The position numbers and the translations under genes were made by a program. From a virus (Duplodnaviria > Heunggongvirae > Uroviricota > Caudoviricetes), in the IMG/VR virus record IMGVR_UViG_2681813146_000008, positions 1-46,757 of that record: a DNA stretch of 46,757 nt; one strand, given 5' to 3'. The number at the start of each line of letters is the position of its first letter. The first letter of the stretch is position 1. The notes below the pieces were generated by a model. It worked only from the letters and a program-made list of their open reading frames with translations, was not told the DNA's origin and searched no databases. Below, one piece after another: positions 1,183 to 44,619 of the stretch.

Positions 1183-1665
1183 ATGGAAGAACTTCACTTT
1201 GTTTACATCAATGCAAATGGTCGTATCGGTGTTCACTCTATACAGAGCATCAGTTATAGCGAAAATCATATACAGGGCATTTGTAAGAACACCGATCGAA
1301 TAAAAACCTTCCGAAAAGACCGCATTCTTAAACAGTACGATTCACCAGAACAAGCCATTCAGGAATGCACATCATTCCTCCCCGAAAACTACTCACATCT
1401 CACTAAGCAGTCTGGTCCGAAAAAAAATACATTCGATGTGTGTTTCACCGGATTTAAGAAAGCAGATAAAGAAAGATTGGTTGATAAGGCGAATGAACAA
1501 GGATTAACGGTAAGAACCTCTGTAACCCAAAGCCTTCAGATGCTCTGTTGCGGTTACAATGCAGGCCCATCAAAAGTATCGGCAGCCAGGATGAAAGGCA
1601 CAATCATCATAGATGAGCCTGGCTTTATACATTTTCTTGAAACGGGTGAGATCCCAGATGAATAA
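1183..1665 (+). CDS. Hypothetical protein with WYL-like N-terminal motif and BRCT-like C-terminal domain
   Basis: 160-aa ORF with AGAGG RBS; RTFRxDRI-type motif (KTFRKDRI); C-terminal pattern resembles the LigA BRCT domain. AT-rich relative to neighbours. Confidence 0.6.
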   Translation: MEELHFVYINANGRIGVHSIQSISYSENHIQGICKNTDRIKTFRKDRILKQYDSPEQAIQECTSFLPENYSHLTKQSGPKKNTFDVCFTGFKKADKERLVDKANEQGLTVRTSVTQSLQMLCCGYNAGPSKVSAARMKGTIIIDEPGFIHFLETGEIPDE

Positions 1666-7643: not shown

Positions 7644-8816
7644 TTACGCGCTGACCTGGCTGGCGAAATTCACCAGGTACTGATCGGTGATGCGCTGGCG
7701 CAGCATCAGATTTTCAAGTGGCGGCACTGGCGTGTAGTCATAGTCGATGGTGAGTTTTCCGGCTTTCAGCGTGTCTTTGTCGTTCACCGACTCATCCAGC
7801 CAGCAATCACCACCAATGAGATAGCCCTGACTGACCAGGCTGCGCATTTTGGCGCGGATACCTTCGATAATGTCGCGGGCCAGCGACGGGTTAAGCGGTT
7901 TATCCACCGCCCACATGTGTGCTTCTGCCATCGTGTCCATCAGCACCTGCGCCGTGCGGGTGTAGTTTTCGAAGGCAAAGAGCGGGTCATCACTCAGGCA
8001 GCGGGAACCCCAGAAGCGGAAACCGTCCTTGCGCACAAGCGTGGTGACGTCGTTCTGGTTCAGCAGACCTGCATCGGTTGCCGGGTCCTGCAGATCCCAG
8101 AACACATCTGCAGAAATTCCGGTGACACCGTTCACGCCCACGTTGGACAGGCTTTTGTGCCATCCGGTCTGCTCGTCAATTTTGGCGCGCAGACCAAGCG
8201 CACGGGCGGTGGCATATGCCGTTGCTTCGGCATTCAGCACCGTGTCCCAGCCAGTAAAGTCAGGCCAGATCAGCATCCCTTCGCGCTGGCTGAAGTTTTC
8301 GCGGTAAGTGATCGCCTCCTGCACTGTCTTGCAGCCATACGCTGACAGGTAAGCAAATCCACGCAGGCTTTGCGCCACGCTCAGCAACTCAGTAGCTACC
8401 GCCTTGGTGTCGTGGCCTGGCACGCCGAGAATGCGCGGTTTAACGCCGAGCTGTGACTGGGCAGATAACAGGGCTTTCATACCTGTTTTTTTACCTTCAG
8501 CAGTCACTGCGCCGATGATATTGGTCGTGGTTTCGTCTTCCGTTTCACCCTGCGGCACACGCACAACAATGGTCACGGGTTTTGCCTGGTCAGCGATGGC
8601 ATCCAGCGAACGGGCCAGAGTACCGGACTCACCCGCTTTACCGCTGGCAGTCAGCACATCAGTGATCAGCACGGGTTTATTAAGAGGAAACATTTTTGCA
8701 TCGGCATCATCGCCCGTGCAGACCATACCCACGATGGCGGTGCTCACCGTGGTAATAGATCGGGTGCCTTCGTTGACTTCAACAACGCGCACCCCGTGGT
8801 GGTAATCCTGAGCCAT
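7644..8816 (-). CDS. FI: Contractile tail sheath protein FI
   Basis: 390 aa, P2 gpFI-like. Confidence 0.92.
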
Positions 8817-8892
8817 AGTGGCGAACCTCCTGATTGGATTAGGCTTCGCCCTATGTTGAAGTGATTGTGCCTGACAAACAGCTAAGCGCAGT

Positions 8893-8910
8893 TGTGTCGT
8901 TATTCACACA
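8893..8910. promoter_or_regulatory. Ogr-type activator dyad (TGT-N12-ACA) upstream of FI (late promoter PF-like)
   Basis: TGTGTCGTTATTCACACA centred about 85 nt upstream of the FI start codon. Confidence 0.5.
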
Positions 8911-8958
8911 AAATAACGATATTTGTCTGCTTGCAGGGATAATCAACATAATGCTGAT

Positions 8959-9531
8959 TCAGGGGGATTCATTGATCTTATTTGCCGGAAATTTTCTATA
9001 AATGGTAGAAACGCCTACATCAAAAATCAGTGCAATACGCTGTCTTGATTCTCCGGCCTCGAGTAAACGCCCAATCTGTGCCCACTGTTCGGTGGTCAAC
9101 TTAGGACGGCGTCCACCTACTCTGCCTTTGGTACGAGCTGCAGCCAGCCCTGCCCTGGTACGTTCAACTATCAGTTCGCGTTCCATTTCAGCCAGGGCAC
9201 CCATGACATGAAAAAAGAAACGGCCCATTGGGGTACTGGTATCAATACTGTCAGTCAGGCTTCTGAAATTCACACCACGCTGGCGCAACTCTTCTATCAG
9301 CGTAACAAGATGCCGCATACTGCGCCCCAACCTGTCCAGCTTCCAGACAACCAGCGTGTCTCCTGCCGATAGTGTCCTGAGTAGTTTTTTCAGCCCCGGT
9401 CTGTCGGACTTAGTGCCACTGATTTTGTCCTCAAAAATCCGCTCACATCCCGCGCAGTTCAGTGCATTACGTTGCAAATCGGTGTTCTGGTCATTTGTTG
9501 ACACGCGTACATAGCCAATAAGCATGATCAT
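8959..9531 (-). CDS. Serine recombinase, DNA invertase (Gin/Hin/Pin/Cin family)
   Basis: 190 aa; N-terminal catalytic motif YVRVSTNDQ and C-terminal HTH; adjacent to inverted tail-fibre segments. Confidence 0.9.
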   Translation of the reverse strand: MIMLIGYVRVSTNDQNTDLQRNALNCAGCERIFEDKISGTKSDRPGLKKLLRTLSAGDTLVVWKLDRLGRSMRHLVTLIEELRQRGVNFRSLTDSIDTSTPMGRFFFHVMGALAEMERELIVERTRAGLAAARTKGRVGGRRPKLTTEQWAQIGRLLEAGESRQRIALIFDVGVSTIYRKFPANKINESP

Positions 9532-9580
9532 CCCCCTGAATAAAAACCGGAGATGATGCCAGTTAGCTGTTACCTCTGCA

Positions 9581-9606
9581 TTTTCTTAAACGTTGGTTTG
9601 GGAGAA
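9581..9606. repeat. Invertase crossover site, left (gix/hix-like, 12-2-12)
   Basis: ttttcttaaacg-tt-ggtttgggagaa; the 14 bp 9593-9606 are a perfect inverted copy of 11415-11428. Confidence 0.75.
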
Positions 9607-9927
9607 GCGGCAAAACGGAATGTGGGAACTGGGGAAAATCAGATACCTGATATGTCATCATATGCATCAGGTTCAGGCTGGCGAAAAATGCCAGATGGTT
9701 CAATTGAACAGTGGGGACGAATTAGTTTTCCTAGTGAACACGGGCCTGTATCCGCCAATGTTTCATTCCCGATTCCATTTACACAGACACCGGGCATTGT
9801 AATTGTGTGCGATGGTGGTTTCGGGGGTGGGAATATGTGGGGGGCGACCAACTGGAGCACTACCGGCTTCATAGCTCACTGCAATTATGGTCTTGAAGGC
9901 GGTGCGTTTTTCGCTAAGGGCTGGTAA
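9595..9927 (+). CDS. Alternative tail-fibre C-terminal segment (Sv'-like, no own start; expressed only after inversion)
   Basis: In-frame from the crossover core; encodes GLGE followed by about 107 aa; shares the GLGE junction with gene H at the opposite crossover site. Confidence 0.65.
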
Positions 9928-10370
9928 TGATGAAATATCTGTACGTAAACAACCTGGCATATCCTTACGAACTTAAGTCTCTTTATGTTGAAAAAGGTGA
10001 GTGGCCTGAAGAAAAAGGTGTTGATATAGACGAAGTAATTTTCAGGGAATATTTCTATGATACACCACCAGAAGGAAAATACAGATGTGTCGGAGAAGAT
10101 GGACTGCCTGCATGGGTAGATATTCCTCCACCAACACGTGAAGAACAAATTGCATCAGCCGAAACTAAAAAGCAGCAATTGATTAATCAGGCCAACGATT
10201 ACATCAACAGTAAACAATGGCCAGGTAAAGCATCAATTGGTCGTCTGAAAGGTGAGGAACTGGTGCAATATAATTTGTGGCTGGATTATCTGGACGCACT
10301 GGAGCTGATCGATACTTCCGGTGCGCCAGATATTGAATGGCCTACGCCTCCGGCAGTTCAGGCCAGATGA
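9927..10370 (+). CDS. Tail fibre assembly protein, alternative copy (Tfa/U'-like)
   Basis: 147 aa; start overlaps Sv' stop (TAATG); C-terminal part conserved with the opposite-strand Tfa; convergent with it. Confidence 0.75.
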   Translation: MMKYLYVNNLAYPYELKSLYVEKGEWPEEKGVDIDEVIFREYFYDTPPEGKYRCVGEDGLPAWVDIPPPTREEQIASAETKKQQLINQANDYINSKQWPGKASIGRLKGEELVQYNLWLDYLDALELIDTSGAPDIEWPTPPAVQAR

Positions 10371-10953
10371 CATCCGGCGCTGTGCTGGTATCTGTTGCCG
10401 TCACCGCGTCAATGTAATCCAGCACAGCGTTAAGGCGGGTTGTTTCTGCCTGCGTCAGTTTACGTCCGGCCTGCAATTTCAGCTGAATCAGACTGATGGA
10501 GGCCATTGCAGTATCAATCAGCGACTGGCGCTGTGCTTCTGCTGCATCTACTGCTGCGCCGTGCTGTGCCTCGGTATCCGTCACCCATTTCTCACCATCC
10601 CATTTATCGTATGGGGTTAACGGGGCGATAGTGGTTGTATTATCAGGATAATCACCCGGAGCTGTGATTTCTTTCGATTCTCCTGTTTCGGTGCTATAGA
10701 CGATTTCACCGCGATGATCTGGCACATATTTCCATGAATTTAAATCTACAGAGCGACAGATTGCATAACCAGCTTTATGTGTACCTGGTGCATCCAAACA
10801 AGAACATGCCGGAATACCGACGCCGACAGCGAGATATTCAGTTGATGTAGAAATATATTCCCGCGTTTCTCCGTTGTAGTTGTAAACGGTAATAAAGCCA
10901 GCTTCCGTGGCAAATCCGTTTTCATCCAAAGTGATTTTTTTTGTGGTCATCAT
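10342..10953 (-). CDS. Tail fibre assembly protein (G/Tfa-like)
   Basis: 203 aa directly downstream of H; C-terminal motif similar to the 9927-10370 product. Confidence 0.8.
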   Translation of the reverse strand: MMTTKKITLDENGFATEAGFITVYNYNGETREYISTSTEYLAVGVGIPACSCLDAPGTHKAGYAICRSVDLNSWKYVPDHRGEIVYSTETGESKEITAPGDYPDNTTTIAPLTPYDKWDGEKWVTDTEAQHGAAVDAAEAQRQSLIDTAMASISLIQLKLQAGRKLTQAETTRLNAVLDYIDAVTATDTSTAPDVIWPELPEA

Positions 10954-12476
10954 GATGCCCTTACAATGTAGTTAAATGCAATGTTACGTGGTCGGTTTTC
11001 TTCCGCAGTTGGTACAACTCTGGCGGCGGAAAAACCTACGTCATACCTATTACCGGGCGATGAGGTTGTTTGACCAGCGCCGCCTTCGTGTGCAGCATTA
11101 AATGGCCCTGTTACCCACTCGTCTGCTGTCCTCTGGTTTCCCGCAGTGGTCATAAGTCCCAAGAGCTTCCCTGATATGTCCCTTATAGCATCACCTTGTG
11201 CGGACAGCAGCGCTCGCCCTGAATCGACCCCACGCCCGTCATCCCAGCCACGAATAAACTCACCACGTAAATCTGGCAATTTATTTGTCGGATAAACTTT
11301 TGCCAGTTCCGGATACTCTTCGGCAGAAAAAGGTGCACCATTGCATTTCAGCCAGCCTGTTGGCGGAGTGGCTGAAGGCCACGGAACAGGCACACCAACG
11401 GGTAATGCCGAACCTTCTCCCAAACCAAGGTATGCGAGAAGACCAGCTACATCCTTTCCACTCAAATTGGTAAGCGTATTGTCCAGCGGTTGTTTACCTG
11501 CCAGCGCATTAAGCATTGTCGTGGCAAAGTTCGGATCATTCCCCAGTGCCGCCGCCAGTTCGTTCAGTGTATCCAGTGCCGCGGGTGCAGAACCCACCAT
11601 TGCTGCAATCGCTGATTTCACAAAAGCTGTAGTGGCAATCTGTGTATTGTTGACCGACTGTGCCGCAGTAGGTGCTGTTGGCGTTCCGGTGAGTGCCGGA
11701 CTCGACAGCGGCGCTTTTTGTGCCAGCGCATTGTTAATGGTGGTACTGAAATTCGGATCATTGTTAATGGCTGCGGCTATTTCTTTCAGCGTGTCCAGCG
11801 TGGCTGGCGCACCATTAATAAGGGCCGTGAGTGCCGCCTGAACAAACGCGGTGGTCGCAAGCTGCGTGGTATTATTCCCCGCCGCTGGCGTTGGCGCTTT
11901 GGGGGTTCCGGTAAACGTTGGACTTTCTTTGGGTGCATACTGTGAATGCGGGTCCAGTGCGGCAAGATGTTTTGCCATCAGGTCATCCACGTACACCTTC
12001 AGCTCCAGTGCCTTGTCATCCACATACTTGCGGGTTGCCAGCACAACGGCAGGGTCGATTTTCAGGGTGATATTGTCCGTGCTGCTGGTTATCAGCACCA
12101 TGCGCACGGTCTGGGTACGCCCACTGCCTTCAGCCAGTTGCGGCTTATAGCTTTCCGGGCAGTTGCCCACGGCAATCAATGCCCCGGACTCATCAAACAG
12201 GCCCACTTCACGTATCCACCAACCGCCCTCGTTTTCAGGGATCACCTGTTCAGCAATAATCTGGCTGCTGTTCTGCGGGTCGATATAGAGCATATTCAAC
12301 GCAGCCCGGCGTTTCTCATTTACTAATGCTGTCTGCTTTGCGTCCGGCGTTGGCAATGTTCCGCCGCCATCGCCGACCGCCATATGGGTAATTTTTAAAG
12401 GCACACCGAGCGCGGTGGCGCTGGCAAGTTTCGCCGCGCCAATATCCGTCAGCAGGGTATAAAATTTTGTGCTCAT
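10950..12476 (-). CDS. H: Tail fibre protein H (constant N-terminus plus currently fused variable C-terminus)
   Basis: 508 aa; Gly/Ala/Thr-rich repeats typical of tail fibres; crossover site lies in-frame at the GLGE codons. Confidence 0.9.
   Translation of the reverse strand: MSTKFYTLLTDIGAAKLASATALGVPLKITHMAVGDGGGTLPTPDAKQTALVNEKRRAALNMLYIDPQNSSQIIAEQVIPENEGGWWIREVGLFDESGALIAVGNCPESYKPQLAEGSGRTQTVRMVLITSSTDNITLKIDPAVVLATRKYVDDKALELKVYVDDLMAKHLAALDPHSQYAPKESPTFTGTPKAPTPAAGNNTTQLATTAFVQAALTALINGAPATLDTLKEIAAAINNDPNFSTTINNALAQKAPLSSPALTGTPTAPTAAQSVNNTQIATTAFVKSAIAAMVGSAPAALDTLNELAAALGNDPNFATTMLNALAGKQPLDNTLTNLSGKDVAGLLAYLGLGEGSALPVGVPVPWPSATPPTGWLKCNGAPFSAEEYPELAKVYPTNKLPDLRGEFIRGWDDGRGVDSGRALLSAQGDAIRDISGKLLGLMTTAGNQRTADEWVTGPFNAAHEGGAGQTTSSPGNRYDVGFSAARVVPTAEENRPRNIAFNYIVRAS
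11415..11440. repeat. Invertase crossover site, right (inside H)
   Basis: ttctcccaaacc-aa-ggtatgcgagaa; inverted partner of 9581-9606. Confidence 0.75.
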
Positions 12477-13078
12477 GGATTTACTCTCATTGTGTCAATA
12501 ACATGGACCGCCCCGCCTTCATGCGCGGTGCCGCCGGAAATAATTGTTTCGTTGATATACGGATAGATCGTGATTTCTTCGCCAAGATAGCTGGCGGCTC
12601 CCACCCAATGCGGGCCGCTGGTCTGCAGATTGATGGACATGCCGATCATGTGGCGGCTACATGGTTTGGCATCGCTTATCAGTCGCTCAAGTTCCAGATA
12701 GGTATCTTCAGTGATGCCCTGGTCCTGCACGCCGATATCCAGGCGAAACGTGCCCGGTGCCTCTCCGGTTTGCCACCACTCAATAATGCGGATCAGAAAG
12801 CCGAACGGCTCCACCACCCGCCGCACGGCACTGGTGGTCCCTTTATGCTGATGAATATAAAAAGCATCCTTCACCACCTGGCGCTTGACGCTTTCTGTCC
12901 AGCCCTCGTCCCAGCGATCCACAGAGAACGCCCAGGCGAGATAAGGCAGGAAACTGACCGGACAGGTTGCCGGATTCCACAAGTCACGAAGCGGCACCTG
13001 CAGATCAGAAATCCCGCTGCAGGTTTGCGCCAGTCGGCGCTCCAGTGGTGTTGAACCCGGTGGCAGCAGACTATTCAT
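12473..13078 (-). CDS. I: Baseplate assembly protein I
   Basis: 201 aa, P2 gpI-like (WNPxTCP, LAWAFSVDRWDE motifs). Confidence 0.88.
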   Translation of the reverse strand: MNSLLPPGSTPLERRLAQTCSGISDLQVPLRDLWNPATCPVSFLPYLAWAFSVDRWDEGWTESVKRQVVKDAFYIHQHKGTTSAVRRVVEPFGFLIRIIEWWQTGEAPGTFRLDIGVQDQGITEDTYLELERLISDAKPCSRHMIGMSINLQTSGPHWVGAASYLGEEITIYPYINETIISGGTAHEGGAVHVIDTMRVNP

Positions 13079-31930: not shown

Positions 31931-33151
31931 ATGGATATTAAAAACAAAGTCAATAAAGAAAAGTTATTTGAGAACCATTTAAACTCATTATTAAAACAAG
32001 TCATTTCCGAACCAAAATTAAACCCTCCACTTATAGTACATAGAGATATAATAAGTGACTTCACTGAACGTTGCGATAAGTATCTAAAAACAATAATTAA
32101 ATACAAAAGCAACAATAAAGATGGGATGCCGAATTTTGATGAATTAATCAGCAAAGTTAAGAACATTCAAAATGGAATAACATTATCACTTGAAAGTTTT
32201 TTATCAGGTGATATCAAGTCAGCATATGACCACTTTGATAAAACATTCTCTGATAACTCAACAATCCAACACATACATCGCATCACTACTCCACTCAGTA
32301 GCATTTGCAATCATAAAAAACCATTATTTCGAGTTAGAAAAAGTGAAAATCCTCTAACGTCAAGAGATGAAATTTTCCATATTCCATTCTCCAATAGACA
32401 TTTTGTTAGTGCACAAAGATATTCAGTCGCTGGCTTACCATGTTTATATCTTGGCACTTCTGTTTATGTTTGTTGGCAGGAGATGGGAAAACCAGATTTT
32501 GACAAGCTTTTTATTTCATCATTTACTACCAGTGAAACTGAATATAAAGTCTTAAACTTTGCATCACAGCTTTTGTTACATCCCTCACCAAATTACGCCG
32601 ACGAAAATAAACTAGCCGAAACAAATAGAGTAAAGGCCTCTTATCTCATTTTCTGGCCTTTAATTATTGCATGTAATTATTTAAAAAATCATCGTTCTGC
32701 AACATTCATACAAGAGTACATTATCCCTAATTTGTTGATGCAATGGATTAGTAGAAAAACTTACTCGAAAATTGTCGGTGTAGCTTACTTCTCTACAAAA
32801 ATGCCTAATTCACGATTAAGTAACCGCTCAATAAATGTTGTATTTCCACCCAAAGTTACATATGAACAAACGGTAAAACAAAATTTTTGCCCTAAACTCT
32901 CCACATTATTCGACTTTACGCCACCTATTTCGTGGCAGGTCTTAAAAACATTAGATCATTCATCAATAACAGAAAATTCAATAGAATTGATGATGTCAAA
33001 GAGATATCTTCAAAGTCAAGAAAAACTGTCTGGAATTAAAAACTTCGAAGAGGACATTGTAAAACTATACCCCTTAACTGATTTTTACAAACTCGAAAGA
33101 AGTATTGATATGCTATTTGAATATAAAAAGATAGATAACCCCATACTATAA
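31931..33151 (+). CDS. AT-rich hypothetical protein with a RES-like motif (cargo between int and att)
   Basis: 406-aa ORF, strongly AT-rich and Lys/Asn-rich versus neighbouring phage genes; central segment RYSVAGLPCLYLGTSVYVCWQE resembles the RES-domain core; same strand and 10 nt downstream of int. Confidence 0.6.
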   Translation: MDIKNKVNKEKLFENHLNSLLKQVISEPKLNPPLIVHRDIISDFTERCDKYLKTIIKYKSNNKDGMPNFDELISKVKNIQNGITLSLESFLSGDIKSAYDHFDKTFSDNSTIQHIHRITTPLSSICNHKKPLFRVRKSENPLTSRDEIFHIPFSNRHFVSAQRYSVAGLPCLYLGTSVYVCWQEMGKPDFDKLFISSFTTSETEYKVLNFASQLLLHPSPNYADENKLAETNRVKASYLIFWPLIIACNYLKNHRSATFIQEYIIPNLLMQWISRKTYSKIVGVAYFSTKMPNSRLSNRSINVVFPPKVTYEQTVKQNFCPKLSTLFDFTPPISWQVLKTLDHSSITENSIELMMSKRYLQSQEKLSGIKNFEEDIVKLYPLTDFYKLERSIDMLFEYKKIDNPIL

Positions 33152-33267
33152 AACTGGCGACAAATTGGCGGCAGAACTTTAAAATCACATAAAACAGCCA
33201 AACACAAGATAAGACTAATTCACTGATTTAAAACGTAAATATCTATTTTCACTATAATATAAATGGT

Positions 33268-33315
33268 ATGTAGGAATTTCGGACGCGGGTTCAACTCCCG
33301 CCAGCTCCACCAAAT
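33268..33315 (+). repeat. Prophage att repeat, distal copy (48 bp); also the left junction of the P4-like element
   Basis: Perfect copy of 1015-1062. Confidence 0.9.
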
Positions 33316-33348
33316 CATGATCCGGATACGTCCGGTGAAGTACAGAAA

Positions 33349-33380
33349 GCCCGCATGGCACAAGCCCTGCGGGCTTTTTT
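33349..33380 (+). terminator. Hairpin plus T6 downstream of the att repeat
   Basis: gcccgca-N12-tgcgggc followed by tttttt. Confidence 0.45.
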
Positions 33381-33427
33381 GTGTCTGTCGTTGTCCGAGA
33401 ACATCCGGCTAAATCCGGTGATTATTG

Positions 33428-33473
33428 GTATACGTTTAGGTATACGGTAGGATGTATACCTAAAAGCGTATAC
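33428..33473. repeat. Four GTATAC-core repeats upstream of the satellite int (candidate Int/Vis arm-type sites)
   Basis: GGTATACG-type motifs at about 33428, 33440, 33454 and 33468, two in each orientation; two more copies at 45003-45020 near the other att end. Confidence 0.5.
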
Positions 33474-33496
33474 CAATTCATGAAGGAGCGGCCACA

Positions 33497-34684
33497 GTGG
33501 CACGGACAACACGCCCCCTTACCAACACCGAAGTTCTTCGCGCTAAAGCGTTAGAGAAGGATCTAACTCTGCATGATGGCGATGGCCTTTTCCTGATAGT
33601 GAAAACCAGCGGGAAAAAGCTCTGGCGTTTCCGTTATCAACGTCCAGCGACAAAACAGCGGACAATGATGGGGCTTGGTGCTTTCCCCGCCCTTTCACTT
33701 GCTGACGCCCGAGGGTTAAGAGCGGATTACCTTGCCTTGTTAGCCAACGGAATTGACCCACAAATTCAGGCCGAAGTTGCAGAGGAACAGCAGCAAATCG
33801 CTCTGGACAGTATTTTCTCAATGGTCGCCGCTAACTGGTTCCAGCTCAAAAGTAAAAGCGTTACCCCTGATTACGCAAAAGACATTTGGCGCTCATTGGA
33901 GAAAGATGTATTCCCTGCCATCGGTGAGATCCCCGTTCAGCAAATTAAAGCCCGAATATTAGTTGAAGCATTGGAACCAATCAAAGCTCGTGGAGCGCTT
34001 GAGACTGTACGTCGACTAGTGCAGCGTATTAACGAGATAATGATTTATGCCGTAAACACTGGTCTGATTGATGCCAATCCAGCATCAGGTATTGGAATGG
34101 CCTTTGAGAAGCCCAAAAAACAAAACATGCCGACGCTGCGGCCAGAAGAATTGCCGAAGCTGATGCGTTCTTTAGTCATGTCAAATCTGTCTGTTCCGAC
34201 TCGCTGTCTCATTGAATGGCAACTCCTGACGCTCGTGCGCCCTTCTGAGGCCTCTGGTGCCCGTTGGGCAGAGATCGATCTCGATACGAAGCTCTGGACT
34301 ATTCCAGCCGAACGGATGAAAGCTAAGCGGGAACACATTGTTCCTTTATCACCACAGGCATTAGAGATTCTGGATGTAATGAAGCCAATTAGCGCTCACC
34401 GAGAACATGTTTTTCCCAGCAGGAATGATCCTAAACAACCTATGAATAGCCAAACTGCTAATGCTGCTCTTAAAAGGATTGGTTATGGCGGTAAACTCGT
34501 TGCTCATGGGCTTCGTTCTATAGCTAGCACAGCGTTGAACGAGTCTGGTTTTAATTCCGATATTATAGAATCAGCTTTAGCGCATATAGATAAAAATGAA
34601 GTACGGCGGGCGTATAATCGTTCTATTTATTTAGAACAACGCAGAGAATTGATGTCATGGTGGGGTATAAAAGTAAAATCATAG
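33497..34684 (+). CDS. int: Tyrosine integrase, P4/CP4-57 IntA family
   Basis: 395 aa, GTG start with AAGGAG RBS; adjacent to the ssrA 3' end repeat as in CP4-57. Confidence 0.92.
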   Translation: MARTTRPLTNTEVLRAKALEKDLTLHDGDGLFLIVKTSGKKLWRFRYQRPATKQRTMMGLGAFPALSLADARGLRADYLALLANGIDPQIQAEVAEEQQQIALDSIFSMVAANWFQLKSKSVTPDYAKDIWRSLEKDVFPAIGEIPVQQIKARILVEALEPIKARGALETVRRLVQRINEIMIYAVNTGLIDANPASGIGMAFEKPKKQNMPTLRPEELPKLMRSLVMSNLSVPTRCLIEWQLLTLVRPSEASGARWAEIDLDTKLWTIPAERMKAKREHIVPLSPQALEILDVMKPISAHREHVFPSRNDPKQPMNSQTANAALKRIGYGGKLVAHGLRSIASTALNESGFNSDIIESALAHIDKNEVRRAYNRSIYLEQRRELMSWWGIKVKS

Positions 34685-34698
34685 GGCTTTCGCCCTAT
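34681..34698. terminator. Bidirectional hairpin between convergent int and the 913-aa gene
   Basis: atagggc-tttc-gccctat. Confidence 0.4.
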
Positions 34699-34708
34699 GA
34701 TTTAATAA

Positions 34709-37450
34709 TTATAAAGTTTCCAATGCGAAATTTCGATATCTCATTAGTGCATAAATATATCTAGTAGTAGATGCAGGTGTCCATGTTCTCTCAAGTTCTT
34801 TTGCTAGTGCTGCCCCCATCATTTTCTTATCATCATCGCCAAATTTATTTACATAAGCATTTAATATTTTGATAGCTGGAGATTCAGTGACTAACCTAGC
34901 TAAAGCCCTTTCAAGGCTGATGCTTTCTAATATAACTTCTATTTTATTATTTATCACCACACCATCATCTTGTCGAGAACAAAAACCTAAAGAAATTAAA
35001 TCCTGCACTGCATTCCTATGTTTATTCGCCTGAATGAATGAATGGCTCATTTTTTTATTGGCGCACAGATACTCGGCAACTTCGAGTGTTTTTTCTGGCG
35101 AAGTAGCAGCTAAGAAAAGTGATCCTCTTCTATTACGTGCCCCTCTTTTATCTAGATCAATCGCCCCAAATGCTGGGGAAAACAACTCGCCATCATATAT
35201 AACCACAGATTTCCCGATAACCGCTATCAGCCCCGTAAATTGTAACCAAGCCAATAATTTTGAACTATAAGACTTAGGATAACCACCGTCTTTATTCTTA
35301 TAAGTATGGGCTATTATAGATTCATACTTATCGATAGGAACTCTTCTTAAATCGGCATCAACAATATTCTCTGCCAATTCTAACAAAACACTATGACTCT
35401 TAAAATGCTCACGAAGAAACTCAGGGACATTTGTGATAGTCTGTTTACAAACTATATTCCCATTTAAATCTCTGTCTATGAGAACAAAATACTGCAAATC
35501 CATTAAAACATTTATTAATGTTCCCCGACTATATTTTAGTTTAGTTTGCAGTTCATCCAAGCTAATGGTTTTGAACGAGTTTACAACATCAAGAATTAAC
35601 AAAACCATTTTCGGAGATGTTGATGGCATATATGACCATGGTATAACTGGAAGGTCATTTCCTTTCAAGTAATCTCGAAAAACGTCCCAATACACTGATA
35701 ATTTTTCACCTGTTTTAATTACCATCCTATCTGAAATTAGCTCTAAAACAGTATCACTCCCAAACTCTTTAGTAACTTCATATTGACTAATCGGAGAGTT
35801 CTTTGCCACAAATTTTAAACATGAATTTTGTTTTTCAGGCCTATCTAAATCCTCATGAAATAAATTTGAGATCTGTAGTTGACTAACCAACATTTGATCC
35901 TGTGAGATACCTCCTTTTAGTTTTTTGAATACATGAATACAAAGCTTTTTCAATAACCATGGATAACCTTGAGCTTGCTGAATAAGACGCGTGCGTAAAG
36001 GTTTATTTAATTTAAACCCTGTATTTAGCTCGAAACTATTAATTAATTTAGATGAATCTTTTAGATCAAAAGGCTCAAGTTTCTTTTCAACCCTATAATC
36101 TTTTAGCCGATTCCACATTGAGTACGCTGGATTTTCATCCCCTAAAGTAATACCAGTTCTCCATGAGAACCCTACAACTAAATTGCTTTGTAGTGCCGAG
36201 ACATCGAGTGCGAATCGTTCAAATTCTTTAAATAGCCCGAATAGTTCCTCTTTCATAAAGACTTCTTCGAACTGATCAAAGAAAATAGTCAATACCTTAT
36301 CATGTTCGGAAAGGTATTTTAAACATTCCTGAACACTCTCAGATCCTATGATATCCGTAACACTCTCAATCAGGAATGGTTTTTCATATTCGATAAAACC
36401 TTCTTTGATCGCACTGCTGAAAGCTTTAACGACAGCTTCTGCCACAAAACGTCCGCCTCTAGCAGAACGGACATCGACTGGTGTAAGGAAGAATTTATTC
36501 TTCCATTTTTGATTTTTAAATCTTGAGGATAGCCTTGCTATTAAAGATGACTTTCCATTTCCTGAACCGCCTATAAGTGATAGGACTCTACTTTGAGAGC
36601 TATTTCCTCTAACATTCTCAAGATAATCCCAAACTTCTTTCTGTATATATTCGCGACCAACAAAGTCTTTCGGCTGACATGGCTTATAATCCATAAAATC
36701 GTCAGCAAGAATTATTTCACTGACAATTTCCCTTTCGTAATTTTCAGATAATTTTGAAGACGAAACAGTTTGTTCCGGTTCAGATAATATATAAAAATCA
36801 GTTACTTCCAACCCTTCAAAAAGCCCTTGCTCCTTTATAATATCACTTATGCGACTGACACTTGGAATTTTACTATTTTTATTTATAGCGAACGGCACCA
36901 CTCTTATAGGGCTACCATTTTCAACTTCTTGCAAAAGCCAAGTCATTTCTATTTCAGGATGAACTAAAAGTGTTGCACTAGTATATTTTGCCGGAATGTC
37001 ATCTGTTGGAATATCCTCAACCTTACCTGTTGCAAGTATAGATATAAGAATCTCTTTTTTATCAAAAAAAGAATAATCTATACGCTCATCAAGTCTATAA
37101 TCCTCAAGCGTTGACTGAGCATCTTTACCCAAATCAGAAATTGAAAAAAGTGCAATTTTTTTAACTCTCAACCTAAATGCTTGAGAAAATGCCAAATCAA
37201 CCACAGATGAATCAACTTTTTGCTGCATGAATTTACATTCTACATACAGCTTTTCATTTGATGGTGTATGAGTAGCCTGAATATCAATTTCCATGCCAGA
37301 TTTTCTGACTTCCATACCATCAATTCTATACGATTGCCGGCGGAGTATATCAGCGCAAAAATTCTCGAAAAACTTCCCTCTCGAGGTATTGGAATAATTA
37401 CTAGGTACACAAACTATCAAATCTTTATTCAGTGGTAACGGCCTGGCCAT
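34709..37450 (-). CDS. Large hypothetical protein: N-terminal Mrr-like PD-(D/E)xK nuclease motif plus P-loop NTPase; candidate antiviral defence protein
   Basis: 913-aa AT-rich ORF; N-terminus GMEIDIQA...YVECKF (D...E-x-K); Walker A LIGGSGNGKSSL and Walker B-like VLTIFFDQFEE; occupies the position of gop-beta-cII between cos and int. Confidence 0.7.
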   Translation of the reverse strand: MARPLPLNKDLIVCVPSNYSNTSRGKFFENFCADILRRQSYRIDGMEVRKSGMEIDIQATHTPSNEKLYVECKFMQQKVDSSVVDLAFSQAFRLRVKKIALFSISDLGKDAQSTLEDYRLDERIDYSFFDKKEILISILATGKVEDIPTDDIPAKYTSATLLVHPEIEMTWLLQEVENGSPIRVVPFAINKNSKIPSVSRISDIIKEQGLFEGLEVTDFYILSEPEQTVSSSKLSENYEREIVSEIILADDFMDYKPCQPKDFVGREYIQKEVWDYLENVRGNSSQSRVLSLIGGSGNGKSSLIARLSSRFKNQKWKNKFFLTPVDVRSARGGRFVAEAVVKAFSSAIKEGFIEYEKPFLIESVTDIIGSESVQECLKYLSEHDKVLTIFFDQFEEVFMKEELFGLFKEFERFALDVSALQSNLVVGFSWRTGITLGDENPAYSMWNRLKDYRVEKKLEPFDLKDSSKLINSFELNTGFKLNKPLRTRLIQQAQGYPWLLKKLCIHVFKKLKGGISQDQMLVSQLQISNLFHEDLDRPEKQNSCLKFVAKNSPISQYEVTKEFGSDTVLELISDRMVIKTGEKLSVYWDVFRDYLKGNDLPVIPWSYMPSTSPKMVLLILDVVNSFKTISLDELQTKLKYSRGTLINVLMDLQYFVLIDRDLNGNIVCKQTITNVPEFLREHFKSHSVLLELAENIVDADLRRVPIDKYESIIAHTYKNKDGGYPKSYSSKLLAWLQFTGLIAVIGKSVVIYDGELFSPAFGAIDLDKRGARNRRGSLFLAATSPEKTLEVAEYLCANKKMSHSFIQANKHRNAVQDLISLGFCSRQDDGVVINNKIEVILESISLERALARLVTESPAIKILNAYVNKFGDDDKKMMGAALAKELERTWTPASTTRYIYALMRYRNFALETL

Positions 37451-37570
37451 TTATACACTCCTTATCTCATATCCTTTTGACAAGTAAGATATCAACCTCG
37501 AGTTTCAGAAACCAGTATCTTGCGCATATTTACGACATCAAAACTTTTGGTTATGCACCCACAGCGCGCA

Positions 37571-37589
37571 GTGCTTTCCCCGCCTCGCC
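37571..37589 (-). other. cos site of the P4-like satellite (19-nt cohesive-end sequence)
   Basis: Minus strand reads GGCGAGGCGGGGAAAGCAC, an exact match to the P2/P4 cohesive end. Confidence 0.8.
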
Positions 37590-37692
37590 CGCCCGCTTTG
37601 CGGGGCGGTTTTAATACAGTTGCACTGACACGCTCAGACCGCGCCGGGAATGGTGCGGTCTGCAGAAAATGAGGCAGGAAAACGCATGCAAA

Positions 37693-37723
37693 GCCATGCA
37701 CCTTATCGATGCATGGCTTTTTT
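37693..37723. terminator. Hairpin plus T-run between psu and cos
   Basis: gccatgca-N9-tgcatggc followed by tttttt on the plus strand. Confidence 0.4.
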
Positions 37724-37753
37724 CAGTAAAAACGGGAGGATTTTCGGGGAATT

Positions 37754-38326
37754 TTACACAGACTGACGTGATGCCAGTTGCGCACTTTTACGCGAAAAAA
37801 TCATGTTCTGCGCAGGGGTGAATTTTTCACGGCTGTCATCCACCGAAGCCGCGTCAGGCCTGAATCCGATGGTCGTTAAAATGTCACTATCCTGTGCGGA
37901 ATAATTAATTTTTTCCCCCTTCGCAAGCCAGGACAGAAGGGCTTCACGCAGGGCATCTGTGGCACGCTGTATGGCACAGTTTCGGGCAATGGCCGTCAGC
38001 TCACTGTAGCCCATCAGCTCCGGTGCCAGTGCCGCCGCCAGTGCTGTGCCGTGCTGCTGCATAAAATCATTCAGCCGGTCGCGGATGCTGATGTGCTGAA
38101 CGGCTTCATGCGAACGAATATAACGACCGGCGGCCTGATTCACCTGCCATTTTCTGACTTCGATAATATTGCGTAATTCGTCCAGGCGACTGACGTTTCT
38201 GCCTTCTCCTGACTGAAGCCGCAGATATTCCTGTTCGGCCGCAGCCAGCTCATTTTTGCGTTGCAGCCATGCTGCTTTGTTATTCTGACAGGTGTCAAAG
38301 GCCTGCTGTAAGGCTGTGCTTTCCAT
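37754..38326 (-). CDS. psu: Polarity suppression protein Psu (Rho antagonist, capsid decoration)
   Basis: 190 aa, sequence recognised as P4 Psu (MESTALQQAFDTCQNNKAAWLQRK...). Confidence 0.9.
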   Translation of the reverse strand: MESTALQQAFDTCQNNKAAWLQRKNELAAAEQEYLRLQSGEGRNVSRLDELRNIIEVRKWQVNQAAGRYIRSHEAVQHISIRDRLNDFMQQHGTALAAALAPELMGYSELTAIARNCAIQRATDALREALLSWLAKGEKINYSAQDSDILTTIGFRPDAASVDDSREKFTPAQNMIFSRKSAQLASRQSV

Positions 38327-38399
38327 CGTTATCTCTTTCTCATCATGCTGAAGAATAAAAATACGGTGTGCGGCGACGGCCGGTGTTAACCGGCAGCCC

Positions 38400-38900
38400 T
38401 CATTCCAGACGCAGCGAATATGATTGTGTTTTTAACCGTACTGGCGGCAGTTCCTGTTTTTCATGCAGGCTTTCTGCAAGCTCGTCCGGCGTGACCGGGC
38501 GGACAATGAAGCGGTTGATGGTCTGAAGCGTTTTAAACACCAGACCACAGCCCGGATCCGTGCACACATAAAAACGCTCGGTGACTTCCTGAGACAGACG
38601 CCGCGATGTTCTTGACAGCGCAAGGCCTTTACATCTCCGACAACAATATCCGGTAACAAGCATTCTTTTCGGGCGCTTCATGCTGCCGGAGGCTGACGTC
38701 AGTGAATCGCGGTATCTCTGTTTGCCTGAAATGTATTCCATTCCTGAATCTTTACAGTCAGAGAAAAAGCTTTCACTCGCTTCAAATGTCGCAGAGCAAT
38801 AAATATTCCGGCACTGTGCAATCATTATCTTGGTGCCATCGTCCATGAAATGTGCGCAACGGGTGTGAGCAACATGTCCACACGACGGGCAGTAAATCAT
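38400..38900 (-). CDS. delta: Delta late-gene transactivator (tandem Ogr-like zinc fingers)
   Basis: 166 aa with two Ogr-type zinc-finger units (CPSCGHVAHTR... and ...CCRRCKG...CTDPGCG). Confidence 0.9.
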   Translation of the reverse strand: MIYCPSCGHVAHTRCAHFMDDGTKIMIAQCRNIYCSATFEASESFFSDCKDSGMEYISGKQRYRDSLTSASGSMKRPKRMLVTGYCCRRCKGLALSRTSRRLSQEVTERFYVCTDPGCGLVFKTLQTINRFIVRPVTPDELAESLHEKQELPPVRLKTQSYSLRLE

Positions 38901-39631
38901 GACAGCAGTCCTCTGGCCTTAAGCTCTGCTCCCTGCTGGTCTATTTTGTCCTGCCACACCTTGCGCTGTGCCGGTGTGCCTGCCACCTCATAATCCATGT
39001 GCGGGAGTGTTGCCGCTGACAGTCCGGTCAGCCGGAGAACCGGCTCGCCGGTGAGGCTGATTTGCATCTGTTTTATTTTCTGTTCCAGCGATGATTTCAC
39101 CTGCTGCATGACAGCCTTATCGGGTGCGACGTAGCCCTGATGCCCGGTGGTGTTGGCGAGCGGATTTTCCTGTACCAGAATGCTCAGATGCATTGCCCGG
39201 ACAAGCGCCTCACAGGTTTCATTCAGGGCGTGTTCCAGCTCATGCTCTGCATACAGACTCAGAAGGTGATGATGTGCCTTCCGGTAGGCGGTGGCCGTGC
39301 TGTCACACGCCCCTTTCAGGCGTTCGCGTTCAAAATTCAGCACCACGGCCAGATTGTCATATTCCTGTACCAGCTCCCGGCGTGCCACGCGCTCAATGTG
39401 GCGCTGTTTCAGCTCGTCGCTCAGGACACCACCGGCTGCACGAAAGGCCGTGCGCCAGTCGTCAGCGTCGTTTCCGTCGGCCTGCGCCAGCGCATTTTTT
39501 TCCTGCTCTGCCCGTTCAATGGCCGTGACGGTCTCATCCATCAGTCGGGCGTTCTCAAGGTGGGCGGCTCTGGCCTTTTCCAGTTGTGCCAGTGCGGGTT
39601 GCAGATATTCAGGGATGGTGTTGTCAGACAT
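38897..39631 (-). CDS. sid: Sid capsid size determination (external scaffold) protein
   Basis: Start set at MSDNTIPEYL (AGGAG RBS), 244 aa as in P4 Sid; the track ORF extends to 39697. Confidence 0.85.
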   Translation of the reverse strand: MSDNTIPEYLQPALAQLEKARAAHLENARLMDETVTAIERAEQEKNALAQADGNDADDWRTAFRAAGGVLSDELKQRHIERVARRELVQEYDNLAVVLNFERERLKGACDSTATAYRKAHHHLLSLYAEHELEHALNETCEALVRAMHLSILVQENPLANTTGHQGYVAPDKAVMQQVKSSLEQKIKQMQISLTGEPVLRLTGLSAATLPHMDYEVAGTPAQRKVWQDKIDQQGAELKARGLLS

Positions 39632-39665
39632 TTTCCGGCTCCTCGTCACTTCAGGTTGAGAAAAT

Positions 39666-39721
39666 TGTGACGTACACCGGACAACAACACGACGCATTGC
39701 AGATGTGCCAGCCCTGACACA
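39666..39721. promoter_or_regulatory. Psid late promoter with two Delta/Ogr dyads (TGT-N12-ACA)
   Basis: TGTGACGTACACCGGACA (39666-39683) and TGTGCCAGCCCTGACACA (39704-39721), centres about 38 bp apart, 35-90 nt upstream of the sid start. Confidence 0.6.
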
Positions 39722-39801
39722 GGAGACTCATCCTCACACCGGCAAGCCAGGAAAAGGTCGCTGGAAAAAACGGCTTACTGTTTATTTTTTTTATATTTTA
39801 C

Positions 39802-39905
39802 TGTTCACCTCTGTTCACCATAAGAAAAAAGATAAGTAATACAGTAAGTTAAAGGGTGAACAATCGCAGTAATGACTGTTCACCGTCTGTTCACCACTGT
39901 TCACC
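39802..39905. repeat. Iteron cluster (six TGTTCACC octamers), candidate satellite ori
   Basis: Octamers at about 39802, 39812, 39877, 39888, 39898 (direct) and 39855 (inverted), mostly at 10-11 bp spacing. Confidence 0.7.
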
Positions 39906-40064
39906 CGTTGATGGGCTTTTTGTGCTGTTTATTACTGTTTGTTTTTATTAATTCGCCGGGAATGAATAAGAAAAAACGATTTGTATTTCACTATAAAAAT
40001 TACGAATTGCTTTAAGTGGCTTTAAATGACTTTAAGTGGAGATGAACAAAAAATACACAAGCAT

Positions 40065-40082
40065 TGTAAGGCTGCCGGAACA
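40065..40082. promoter_or_regulatory. Delta/Ogr-type dyad upstream of the alpha operon (PLL-like late promoter)
   Basis: TGTAAGGCTGCCGGAACA about 110 nt upstream of the first + strand gene. Confidence 0.4.
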
Positions 40083-40184
40083 AATCCCCCCTGTTGCGTC
40101 TGCTGAAAATATTCACAAAATAAAGCGCTACCCGAAGCCGGACGGACTTATCCGGTGCTGTATGGACATTAACGAGGTAGCCCG

Positions 40185-40451
40185 ATGCAAGCTGTTTTTT
40201 CTTCCCCGTCTCCCGCCCCTGTGACGCCACTGATGCCGCTGCCGGACATCACACAGGAGCGTTTTTTACGTCTTCCGGAAGTGATGCACCTGTGCGGCCT
40301 GTCACGCTCGACCATCTATGAACTCATCCGTAAGGGGGAATTTCCGCCGCAGGTGAGTCTTGGCGGTAAAAATGTGGCCTGGCTGCACTCTGAAGTCACC
40401 GCATGGATGGCCGGGCGCATTGCCGGACGCAAACGGGGGTACGACGCATGA
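40185..40451 (+). CDS. AlpA/Vis-family small HTH regulator
   Basis: 88-aa ORF with GAGG RBS; RLPEV...[11 protein letters not shown]...V.W pattern typical of AlpA-family regulators. Confidence 0.7.
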
Positions 40452-41047
40452 TGATGCCCGCTCTGCAAAAACTCCCTTTTTCTGGCTTGCCTTTTTCCGG
40501 CATTTGCGGATATAGTTTTTCCGCTGCCGCAAAATCGGCAGCCGGGCGTGAGAACCCGAGCAATTCACAGGCGACATATGACGCGCCACGCGTCTTTTTT
40601 TGTGTCGCAATCAATGCCACAGAGCGCCAGATTATGGTGTGGTGTGTGGTCAGTCGTGCAGATGGCATTCCGTGCATCCTGCCCGCGTCCGCTCATTATG
40701 CCGCAGAGTCAATGGTAGCTCAGGCGGGGCAGCCTCCGGGCTGGCCGGTATCCTGTGAAGCCGGTATTCTCACCCCCGTCTGGGCTATCGCCATCGAGCG
40801 TGAGAACTCCGGCGATAGCGTTATTTGCTATTCACAGGAGGCTGCCATCATGGCTACAACCCTTACCCCCTCACACCCTGAATTTGTCTTTGTGTTTGCG
40901 GCTGTCCGTCGCGCAGACCGTCATCCCCGTATCTGTATGCTTCGCACCGTCGCCGGTGATGAACGCAGCGCCCGCCGTTCCCTTGTCCGTGACTATGTGC
41001 TCTCCCTTGCTGCCCGTCTGCCGGTGATGGGGGTGTCCCGTGCGTAA
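40448..41047 (+). CDS. Hypothetical protein (199 aa)
   Basis: ATG overlapping the upstream stop; length matches a P4 alpha-operon ORF; no recognisable motif. Confidence 0.45.
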
Positions 41048-41327
41048 TAAAAAAGCCCCTCAGACCGTCTCAGCGCGTCATGACGCCCGTGAACACCTCA
41101 GCATTGAGGCTTACCATAAGCTCAACCGCGCCAGCGCCGTATCCCAGTTTGTTGGGGGTGATTTGATTCACCGTGAACTCTCCGGCCTGCATCAGCTCTA
41201 CATTCCGCATATTTTCAGCTACCTGAATGAAGATATTGATTTTGTGCTGAATGAGCTGAAAGCCAAAGGCCTGTGCCGCGATTTTCTCGCCCAGCAGAAA
41301 GACCGGGGAGACAGGACGCATGTTTGA
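41040..41327 (+). CDS. Hypothetical protein (95 aa; position of P4 epsilon)
   Basis: 95-aa ORF in the operon leading to alpha; the epsilon assignment is positional only. Confidence 0.5.
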
Positions 41328-41775
41328 TTTTCCCCAGCCCGGTGAGATTTACCGTTCTGCCGGTTTTCCCGATGTGGCCGTGGTCGGCATTCTGGAAGAC
41401 GGTATTCCGTGGGAAATGCCGTACCGCTGCCCGGACATTGTCTGGAATCCGTACCGCCGTAAATTCAGTATCCTTGTGCGTATCCTCGCTGACGGGCGCA
41501 CCACAGACATCCCGCTGGGGCGTTTTCTGCGGGAATTTACCTGTGACCGTCCTGACCTGTTCAAACGCAGCCCCGTAAACCGGCATGCGGTACTGAAAGA
41601 AATGGCCGGAGACCCGGAATTACAGAAATGGCGGGAGAAATATCTGGATATTTACCCGCAGGACCCTGTTCCGGTCAGCCGGGCGGCACCGGTGGCGCGG
41701 GAATGGCGGGAAATTCCCCGCACGGAGCCTGACCCGGAAACCACCCCGGATAACAGTTACCGCAATTATCTGTAA
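41320..41775 (+). CDS. Hypothetical protein (151 aa)
   Basis: Overlapping start with the previous ORF; same length as the P4 ORF preceding alpha. Confidence 0.55.
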   Translation: MFDFPQPGEIYRSAGFPDVAVVGILEDGIPWEMPYRCPDIVWNPYRRKFSILVRILADGRTTDIPLGRFLREFTCDRPDLFKRSPVNRHAVLKEMAGDPELQKWREKYLDIYPQDPVPVSRAAPVAREWREIPRTEPDPETTPDNSYRNYL

Positions 41776-41910
41776 TTAAAAAACGACACCCGAAAAATTA
41801 AATGTGCGTATTCGCGCAGGGATACGCACGTCTTCAGGAGACGCAGATATGCCTTATCAGTTAATGCAACCGGCACGGAATGCAGTCATCTGTCACAGGG
41901 AGGAAAGCAA

Positions 41911-42231: not shown

Positions 42232-42245
42232 AGGAGAACAACACC

Positions 42246-44579: not shown

Positions 44580-44595
44580 CCATCATGACTCATCT

Positions 44596-44619
44596 GACCG
44601 GCATCTGCCGGTCTTTTTT
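44596..44619 (+). terminator. Intrinsic terminator after alpha
   Basis: Perfect hairpin gaccggca-tc-tgccggtc followed by tttttt. Confidence 0.7.

Follow-up and report, generated by a model that had tools for sequence, protein, structure and literature searches.

A probable two-state tail-fibre switch of the Mu G-segment type in an apparently intact P2-like prophage at ssrA of Escherichia coli

An apparently intact P2-like prophage, integrated at ssrA in E. coli, very probably carries a working two-state tail-fibre switch of the kind represented by Mu G, P1 C and Fels-2 fin. In the 46,757-nucleotide stretch of viral DNA that we analysed as a whole (hereafter the window), we established the anatomy of this switch, its two in-frame fibre products and the family of its enzyme, and in near-identical loci elsewhere we found the segment in both orientations. 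An earlier note on this DNA had interpreted the region as a switch of the Mu G-segment type on a P2-type tail. That interpretation is supported and its structural claims are all correct, since invertase, sites, tip swap and P2 gene order agree.

Results

A serine invertase in a P2-like prophage

Between intact att repeats, which are 48-bp copies of ssrA sequence, the window contains a full P2-type gene set covering head, tail, lysis and replication as well as a repressor and an integrase. Its tail genes run in the order D-U-T-E-FII-FI, then H-I-J-W-V, and are accompanied by a P2-family capsid, gpA, a CI-type repressor and an integrase. The closest phage record is that of Escherichia phage 500465-1 (NC_049342; Peduoviridae, Wadgaonvirus), with 96.2% identity over 94% of window positions 1-25000; like the window, this record starts at smpB and has the same gene order, and it annotates a 'DNA invertase'.

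On the minus strand, an open reading frame of 190 aa occupies positions 8959-9531, all of which had been assigned to a Gin/Hin-family serine invertase. The frame is real, but its third codon (9525) is the likely start, giving a protein of 188 aa (8959-9525), like annotated homologues. As for the family, Pfam detected Resolvase (7.5e-53, residues 5-137) and HTH_7 (1.4e-15, residues 140-183) in the 190-aa frame, that is, the catalytic N-terminal domain and C-terminal helix-turn-helix of a small serine recombinase of about 190 aa. The PDB structure of Gin (3UJ3) matched residues 1-184 (E=5.9e-93), and the protein is 74.6% identical to Mu Gin and 77.3% to P1 Cin, which bears out its assignment to the DNA invertases of the Gin/Cin/Hin/Pin/Fin type. 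None of the five proteins of the region was assigned to a specific NCBIfam family, the invertase matching other serine-recombinase models only, all below cut-off, and a PADLOC search with the invertase returned no match.

The catalytic set is present, with S9 (Gin S9, Hin S10) together with R7, R42, D64, R65 and R68, and the motif YVRVSTNDQ is the same in the invertase and in Gin (3UJ3 itself being an S9A mutant). The protein also has K46, K47 and R50, and the sequence QIGRLL at residues 153-158. If its residue numbering is that of Hin minus 1, as we take it to be, Hin K47/R48/K51 correspond to K46/K47/R50, and Hin Q151/R154/L155 to the Q..RL of QIGRLL. These positions are the Fis-contact residues conserved in Fis-dependent invertases (Hin K47, R/K48 and K/R51; Q151, R154 and L155; PMC3798978).

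Two recombination sites enclose alternative tail-fibre tips

Repeat and template searches recovered both of the gix-like sites that had been proposed, each 26 bp long and the two in mutually inverted orientation. One adjoins the invertase (9581-9606; TTTTCTTAAACG TT GGTTTGGGAGAA) and the other lies within gene H (11415-11440; TTCTCCCAAACC AA GGTATGCGAGAA). Both consist of imperfect inverted 12-bp half-sites around a 2-bp centre, which is AA in each when read from the inner half-site outwards. The longest inverted repeat in 8900-12600 has its arms at 9581-9607 and 11414-11440 (27 nt, 81% complementary). Its perfect 14-bp core, TTGGTTTGGGAGAA, was exact on re-inspection and is unique to the two sites, occurring in the 46.7-kb window only at 9593-9606 (+) and 11415-11428 (-), even at 2 mismatches. 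When the window was searched with a 12+2+12 palindromic template, only these two 26-mers agreed with it at a minimum of 15 positions out of 18, compared with a mean of 0.16 matches in mononucleotide shuffles of the window, a comparison that is partly circular because the template was derived from the same sites. A third crossover site, sought in the whole window with relaxed matching included, was not found; systems with multiple inversions (p15B Min, shufflons and one EPEC locus, which has three repeats and four states) need at least three sites, whereas the window has two only.

The two sites delimit an invertible segment of 1,832 bp between their central dinucleotides (9595-11426), which becomes 1,860 bp when the sites themselves are counted, in line with the previous estimate of about 1.84 kb. 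Residues 1-350 of tail fibre H, its constant N-terminal part, are encoded outside the segment (11427-12476, minus strand). This part matches Pfam Phage_tail_fib (1.7e-65, residues 1-150) and sits in P2 gene order, downstream of homologues of tail protein I and baseplate J. The central AA of the site in H (11427-11428) forms positions 2-3 of codon Leu350 (CTT), and the strand exchange point is the TT of this codon, immediately before GLGE.

In the present orientation, H continues into GLGE plus 154 aa (10950-11426, minus strand), a tip with a Pfam Collar match (5.9e-14, H residues 361-408). H thereby reaches 508 aa, made up of 354 constant and 154 variable residues with LGLGE at residues 350-354, so that inversion would exchange about 154 C-terminal residues together with the chaperone Tfa, as the earlier note had it. 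Tfa (203 aa; 10342-10953, minus strand; Caudo_TAP 7.3e-33) overlaps the H stop codon. The DNA at 10290-11434, comprising most of the expressed tip and Tfa, is 95.6% identical to stf/tfa of the lambdoid phage HK106.

Facing this cassette, on the plus strand, is a silent alternative C-terminus (9595-9927; Pfam Gp53-like_C 7.2e-08), followed by its own tail-fibre assembly chaperone, Tfa' (147 aa; 9927-10370, plus strand). The latter had been read as an alternative chaperone, and its Caudo_TAP match (3.2e-32) agrees; the stop of the silent tip and the start of Tfa' overlap in the sequence TAATG, and the Tfa' and Tfa genes share 29 bp at their 3' ends. The silent tip has 106 aa after GLGE rather than the 107 first counted, and its predicted in-frame fusion at GLGE stands: when the segment was inverted in silico, the tip was joined in frame to H residues 1-350, yielding an open H of 460 aa (354 + 106). 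Beyond the site the two tips are without likeness (best local alignment score 34). The cassette is thus built like those of Mu G and P1 C, with a constant part outside and two opposed tips inside, each with a chaperone and both in frame. The silent cassette also has an upstream ATG of its own, which defines an open reading frame at 9553-9927; the equivalent of this frame is a separate gene in RefSeq annotation.

The segment occurs in both orientations in E. coli genomes

Homologous loci covering at least 80% of the query were found in the window's orientation in 16 E. coli genomes and flipped in 7. Two pairs of loci (L001/L002 and L003/L004) have collinear flanks, and within each pair it is precisely the stretch corresponding to the segment that is reverse-complemented; the junction sequence in all four loci is identical to the window's invertase-proximal site. 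The O25b:H4 assembly GCF_001874485.1 has the locus twice, once in the chromosome and once in a 29.5-kb extrachromosomal record. An inverted homologous segment is all that sets these two copies apart (identity 99.8-100% in the flanks and 99.95% in the segment), and the sequence of their junction sites is the same as the window's. The invertase of this O25b:H4 locus, which is seen both ways, is identical to the window's at 187/188 residues, the sole difference being T132A. Near-identical homologous loci therefore hold the segment in both orientations, and we infer that it also inverts in the window's own strain.

These relatives decide whether the repeat has a recombination function at all. A match by chance, or coding sequence common to two homologous fibre genes, would be in keeping with the shortness of the exact repeat (14-15 bp) and with the LGLGE peptide in both frames. 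However, the tips are alike nowhere but at the site, the layout is 12+2+12 with an invertase-proximal site that aligns with Mu gixR, and the inversion breakpoints in the relatives fall exactly on the repeat. The last point refutes both versions of this explanation, to which we give virtually no weight.

The P2-like prophages of E. coli O25b:H4 and ST131, like phage 500465-1, have sites identical to the window's and invertases that agree with its own at 186-187/188 residues, but their tip and chaperone cassettes are partly unlike it. Because the best E. coli genome match to 8900-11700 reaches only 94.5% identity over 90%, the exact pairing of cassettes in the window is a slightly different mosaic from that in E. 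coli relatives. Matches to the region include pinE and tfaE.

It is also conceivable that the window holds a frozen relic, in which the architecture was inherited, the switch no longer flips and only the Collar-type fibre is ever made. An invertase crippled by T132, a lack of expression of its gene or a degraded enhancer would be possible causes. The single assembled window does show one orientation only, and its invertase has T132 where four close homologues compared (L001, L003, L004 and L006) have A. In addition, a sigma-70 promoter scan of 8800-12600 returned promoter-like matches no commoner than in shuffled sequence, with none immediately upstream of the invertase start. (A terminator scan of the same interval gave 7 matches against 3.6 ± 1.9 in shuffles, a modest excess, and none was informative.) On the other side, the catalytic and Fis-contact residues of the invertase are all intact, each of the two sites has the sequence of a site at which relatives have demonstrably recombined, and the silent tip and its chaperone have kept open frames that Pfam matches significantly. 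Moreover, related invertases act in trans, as PinQ of Qin does in inverting the e14 P segment (PMC12529663), and loss of the resident enzyme alone therefore need not lock the segment. On balance, we consider a switch that has ceased to flip very unlikely.

A putative enhancer in the invertase gene

By homology to P1, whose record annotates an enhancer at cin nt +19..+90, we place a putative Fis-dependent recombinational enhancer at invertase nt +19 to +90 (9436-9507, minus strand). Two 15-mers with G and C ends in this interval, GTGTCAACAAATGAC and GCGCGGGATGTGAGC, align with Mu gin and are centred at +29 and +78, the proximal one lying about 97 bp from the centre of the recombination site. 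Across 9 invertase genes, synonymous-codon identity peaks at the putative enhancer (0.52, compared with 0.35 in the remaining gene), although the comparison is confounded by coding constraint and by sequence pairs that are not independent. By analogy with the known systems, inversion may depend on Fis and this enhancer. The text of PMC3798978 gives AT-rich ATTTA and TAATG as hin enhancer motifs between the Fis sites; at the homologous place the window has GATTTG and GTAATG, a resemblance only.

Discussion

In the working switch that we favour, dimers of the 188-aa serine invertase would bind both 26-bp sites, which would then synapse with a Fis-bound enhancer in the 5' end of the invertase gene, a step assumed from the analogy with Gin, Hin and Cin. 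Cleavage at the central AA/TT dinucleotide, rotation through 180 degrees and religation would flip 9595-11426, and the late-operon transcript would run from constant H (residues 1-350) into one of the two tips. State 1, the window's present one, would produce the Collar-type tip with the 203-aa chaperone (H = 508 aa), and state 2 the gp53-like tip with the 147-aa chaperone (H = 460 aa). A population of lysogens would in this way release two kinds of virion with different receptor specificity. The two alternative tips probably target different hosts, and the switch would then serve as a bet-hedging host-range device.

Invertible tail-fibre switches are already known from Mu G, P1 C, Fels-2 fin and EPEC P2-like prophages, and related phage records annotate the system already. 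The order of elements in Mu G/Gin and P1 C/Cin is that of the window: constant fibre, site, tip and chaperone, convergent chaperone and tip, site. All three have the invertase outside the segment and 26-bp sites with a 2-bp centre. The distance from the invertase-proximal site to the invertase start equals that in Mu except for a 1-nt indel, and the putative enhancer corresponds in position to the one annotated in P1 cin. The window differs in its carrier, a P2-type phage (Peduoviridae) rather than Mu or P1; in its segment length, 1.8 kb where Mu has about 3 kb (boundaries 31966 and 35025) and P1 about 4.2 kb (32225-36480); in its central dinucleotide, AA instead of the GA of Mu gixR; and in its tips (Collar, gp53-like), whose domains are not those of Mu or P1. 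By description, Fels-2 fin (STM2702) and EPEC E2348/69 share a P2-like prophage, an invertase beside H and alternative C-termini. Inversion of the Fels-2 tail-fibre segment between Salmonella LT2 and LT7 has been ascribed to fin (PMC7953296), and in EPEC P2-like prophages two-state and four-state inversions of about 1,800 bp have been measured, with both orientations quantified in culture (PMC4272514).

The e14 P segment with Pin, and PinQ/PinR of cryptic prophages, resemble the window in the family of the invertase and in that tail-fibre C-termini and tfa genes are inverted, but those elements are defective, whereas the window's looks like a complete phage. Their example raises the alternative that inversion serves mainly the lysogen, for instance through a fibre-derived protein that blocks the adsorption of other phages, with host range being secondary. 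The prophage described here is not cryptic, having a complete P2-type gene set between intact att repeats, and in P2 the gene H is part of the operon of late tail genes, of which no expression is expected in a lysogen. In favour of host co-option are the silent cassette's own ATG, with its separately annotated RefSeq equivalent, and the precedent of the cryptic prophage e14, in which a homologous segment, once inverted, is reported to encode a chimeric protein that keeps T2 from adsorbing; for these defective elements a role in host defence has been proposed (PMC12529663). We regard this reading as improbable, even more so than the loss of switching.

The main relevance of the switch is one of annotation. 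Whichever orientation is assembled, H takes the length that goes with it and the silent tip is called as a small gene of its own ('gp53-like domain-containing protein' in some records, 'phage tail protein' in others), effects that can pass for strain variation or misassembly; at least one public assembly has deposited the minor orientation as a separate extrachromosomal record. The alternative tips are modules common to unrelated phages, and this modularity is useful for predicting the host range of P2-like phages and for tailocin engineering. The device as such is ordinary and well known, and opens no new question.

Alongside the switch itself, there is an outside chance, slightly better than that of either lysogen-centred inversion or a frozen segment, that the locus has a second role in the lysogen, in which the invertase would act in trans on other Din-type segments of its genome or one of the orientations would give a fibre-derived product that alters sensitivity to other phages. 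By comparison with PinQ and e14, the separately startable frame at 9553-9927 may be such a product. As to the invertase gene, its ribosome-binding region (9530-9541) can pair perfectly over 12 nt with the region of its stop codon (8957-8968), and that this pairing throttles translation of the invertase is a further small possibility.

A probable invertible segment with a crossover site at each end

The feature is a two-state, Gin-family tail-fibre switch, whose mechanism we infer with high confidence. In 8900-12600, no inverted repeat is longer than the one with arms at 9581-9607 and 11414-11440 (27 nt, 81% complementary), around the invertible segment 9595-11426. The earlier note, made from sequence alone, had described an inverted repeat at two gix-like sites, and on re-inspection these do share an exact 14-mer, TTGGTTTGGGAGAA, which occurs at only two places in the 46.7-kb window, both at the crossover sites, even when two mismatches are allowed. 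A chance repeat is one of three alternatives, discussed with the others below, to which we give only a small probability between them. Both sites are 26-mers in which two 12-bp half-sites flank a 2-bp centre: TTTTCTTAAACG-TT-GGTTTGGGAGAA at 9581-9606 and, within the tail fibre gene H on the opposite strand, TTCTCGCATACC-TT-GGTTTGGGAGAA at 11415-11440. The inner half-sites are identical and the outer ones different, and the central dinucleotide is common to both when each is read outwards from the segment. Neither the 14-mer search with two mismatches nor template matching found a third crossover site in the window, which makes this a two-state system.

Inversion would exchange tail fibre tips and chaperones

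At its N-terminus, the tail fibre H (10950-12476, minus strand, 508 aa) carries a P2-type fibre domain (Pfam Phage_tail_fib, 1.7e-65), and residues 361-408 form a Collar domain. The crossover site within H has its central dinucleotide in codon Leu350, directly followed by GLGE (351-354) and then by the 154 residues previously proposed to be exchanged. When 9595-11426 was reverse-complemented in silico, H remained open at 460 aa, keeping residues 1-354 and gaining 106 new residues with a gp53-like C-terminal domain (Pfam); the in-frame fusion at GLGE proposed in the earlier note thus held, but not its length of 107 aa. Behind each tip comes a separate Caudo_TAP assembly chaperone whose start codon overlaps the stop codon of the tip: 10342-10953 (minus strand, 203 aa) for the Collar-type tip and 9927-10370 (plus strand, 147 aa) for the gp53-like one. 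By local alignment the two tips are unrelated to each other, and likeness between the chaperones is confined to their C-terminal halves. The convergent chaperone genes share 29 bp at their 3' ends (10342-10370), DNA that codes both C-termini on opposite strands, and annotated homologues have the same overlap. Separately, the expressed tip and chaperone (10290-11434) have 95.6% DNA identity to the side tail fibre/tfa genes of lambdoid phage HK106; here tip modules have clearly been exchanged between phages of unrelated types.

A Gin-like invertase with a candidate enhancer

An ORF of 190 codons at 8959-9531 (minus strand) matches Pfam Resolvase (7.5e-53) and HTH_7 (1.4e-15). ORF and family are as first read, but the gene most likely comprises 8959-9525 (188 aa), because annotated homologues begin at the third ORF codon. 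Mu Gin aligns to residues 1-184 (PDB 3UJ3, E = 5.9e-93), and identity is 74.6% to Gin and 77.3% to P1 Cin. The protein retains R7, S9 and R42, with D64, R65 and R68 read from sequence. McLean et al. reported residues conserved specifically in Fis/enhancer-dependent invertases (PMC3798978); these are kept here, with Hin K47/R48/K51 corresponding to K46/K47/R50, and Hin Q151/R154/L155 to the Q..RL of QIGRLL.

The invertase-proximal crossover site aligns with Mu gixR, at a nearly equal distance from the start codon. The Cin enhancer is annotated at cin nucleotides +19 to +90 in the P1 record, and the homologous stretch of the window, 9436-9507, includes two conserved 15-mers (centres at +29 and +78), each with a terminal G and C. 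Among nine diverged invertase genes, synonymous-codon identity was highest over codons 7-30 (0.52 versus 0.35 in the rest of the gene), the pattern expected from an enhancer within coding sequence. Since the pairs compared are non-independent and these codons also encode the catalytic core, we consider the putative enhancer likely and no more. In addition, a perfect 12-nt inverted repeat flanks the gene (8957-8968 and 9530-9541, ATTCAGGGGGAT and ATCCCCCTGAAT) and on the mRNA would join the ribosome-binding region to the stop-codon region. Close E. coli homologues have it too, and the Mu, P1, YP3 and P88 invertase loci lack it; as we estimate ~0.4 such repeats per 3.7 kb by chance, it may be a coincidence.

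Homologous loci are found in both orientations

We used 8900-11700, as is or flipped in silico, to search the complete genomes of E. coli. At a query coverage of at least 80%, 16 genomes matched in the window's orientation and 7 matched the flipped query. In one E. coli O25b:H4 assembly (GCF_001874485.1), the same prophage is present in the chromosome and in a 29.5-kb 'extrachromosomal' record (NZ_CP015088.1). The flanks are 99.8-100% identical, and the sole difference is that the homologous segment (99.95% identical) is reverse-complemented. The alignments share 15-18 bp at each crossover site, the junction sequences match the window's sites exactly, and the invertase departs from that of the window by a single residue, T132A (187/188 identical). 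The same inversion was seen in a second pair, from ST131-type strains. Window-type sites accompanied by a nearly identical invertase therefore lie at loci that occur in both orientations, even within one assembly; that the segment also inverts in the window's own strain we infer from this likeness.

The extrachromosomal record, which looks like the chromosomal prophage assembled a second time in the minority orientation and has several frameshifted genes, is probably an assembly by-product of inversion, not a true replicon. In the ST131-type pair, the oppositely oriented segments are 99.9% identical and the flanking prophage DNA only 96.6-97.8%, which points either to movement of the cassette between prophages or to mosaic flanks.

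The design is that of Mu G and P1 C, but on a P2-like phage, a combination already described. Tail-fibre inversion in Fels-2, between Salmonella LT2 and LT7, was credited to fin (STM2702), a homologue of pin (PMC7953296). In EPEC E2348/69, coexisting orientations were measured by Goldberg et al. for two P2-like prophages, of which one has two states and the other four (PMC4272514, which cites Nguyen et al.). The e14 P segment is inverted by PinQ, and related invertases act in trans (PMC12529663; see also Kutsukake et al., on Typhimurium LT2), so an inactive resident invertase alone would not lock the segment. The remaining two alternatives, a frozen relic and host co-option as reported for PinQ/e14, share with a chance repeat the small probability allotted to all three. 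We retain the reading of a tail-fibre switch of the Mu G-segment type on a P2-type tail, as the earlier note had it: its observation was confirmed and its interpretation supported. Switches of this kind are known already, and in close relatives this one is annotated.

The prophage and a neighbouring element at ssrA

At its left end the window has smpB-ssrA, with 100% identity to many E. coli genomes, and the ssrA 3' end recurs as a perfect 48-bp direct repeat (1015-1062 and 33268-33315) on either side of a P2-like prophage of ~32.2 kb. The P2-type gene set between the repeats is full: tail genes D to FI, the switch, H-I-J-W-V, lysis genes, capsid and terminase, portal, gpA, a Dam-type methylase, CII-/CI-type regulators and an integrase. 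The first 25 kb show 96.2% identity over 94% to Escherichia phage 500465-1 (Peduoviridae, Wadgaonvirus), in whose record a 'DNA invertase' is already annotated in this position. Given these genes and this likeness, the P2-type tail and the location inside the prophage had been correctly recognized.

Two further ORFs lie near the att repeats. A 160-aa ORF (1183-1665, plus strand), between the left repeat and an ogr-like regulator, weakly matches candidate system PDC-S48 in PADLOC (1.8e-07) and carries the label 'DNA ligase' in the related phage record. A 406-aa ORF (31931-33151, plus strand), between integrase and right repeat, had no match in Pfam at E<=1e-5 or PADLOC at E<=1e-3, and may be prophage cargo.

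A third, partial copy of the ssrA repeat (16 bp, 45083-45098) could be where a second element ends. The region 33497-45100, with a P4-type integrase (33497-34684), Psu (37754-38326) and a primase-helicase (42246-44579), appears to be a P4-like satellite in tandem after the prophage; if so, helper and satellite would share a single attachment site. Between its integrase and psu, a 913-aa protein with Mrr-type restriction endonuclease and STAND NTPase domains (34709-37450, minus strand), for which a very weak DndF match was all that PADLOC gave, is a candidate anti-phage cargo gene.
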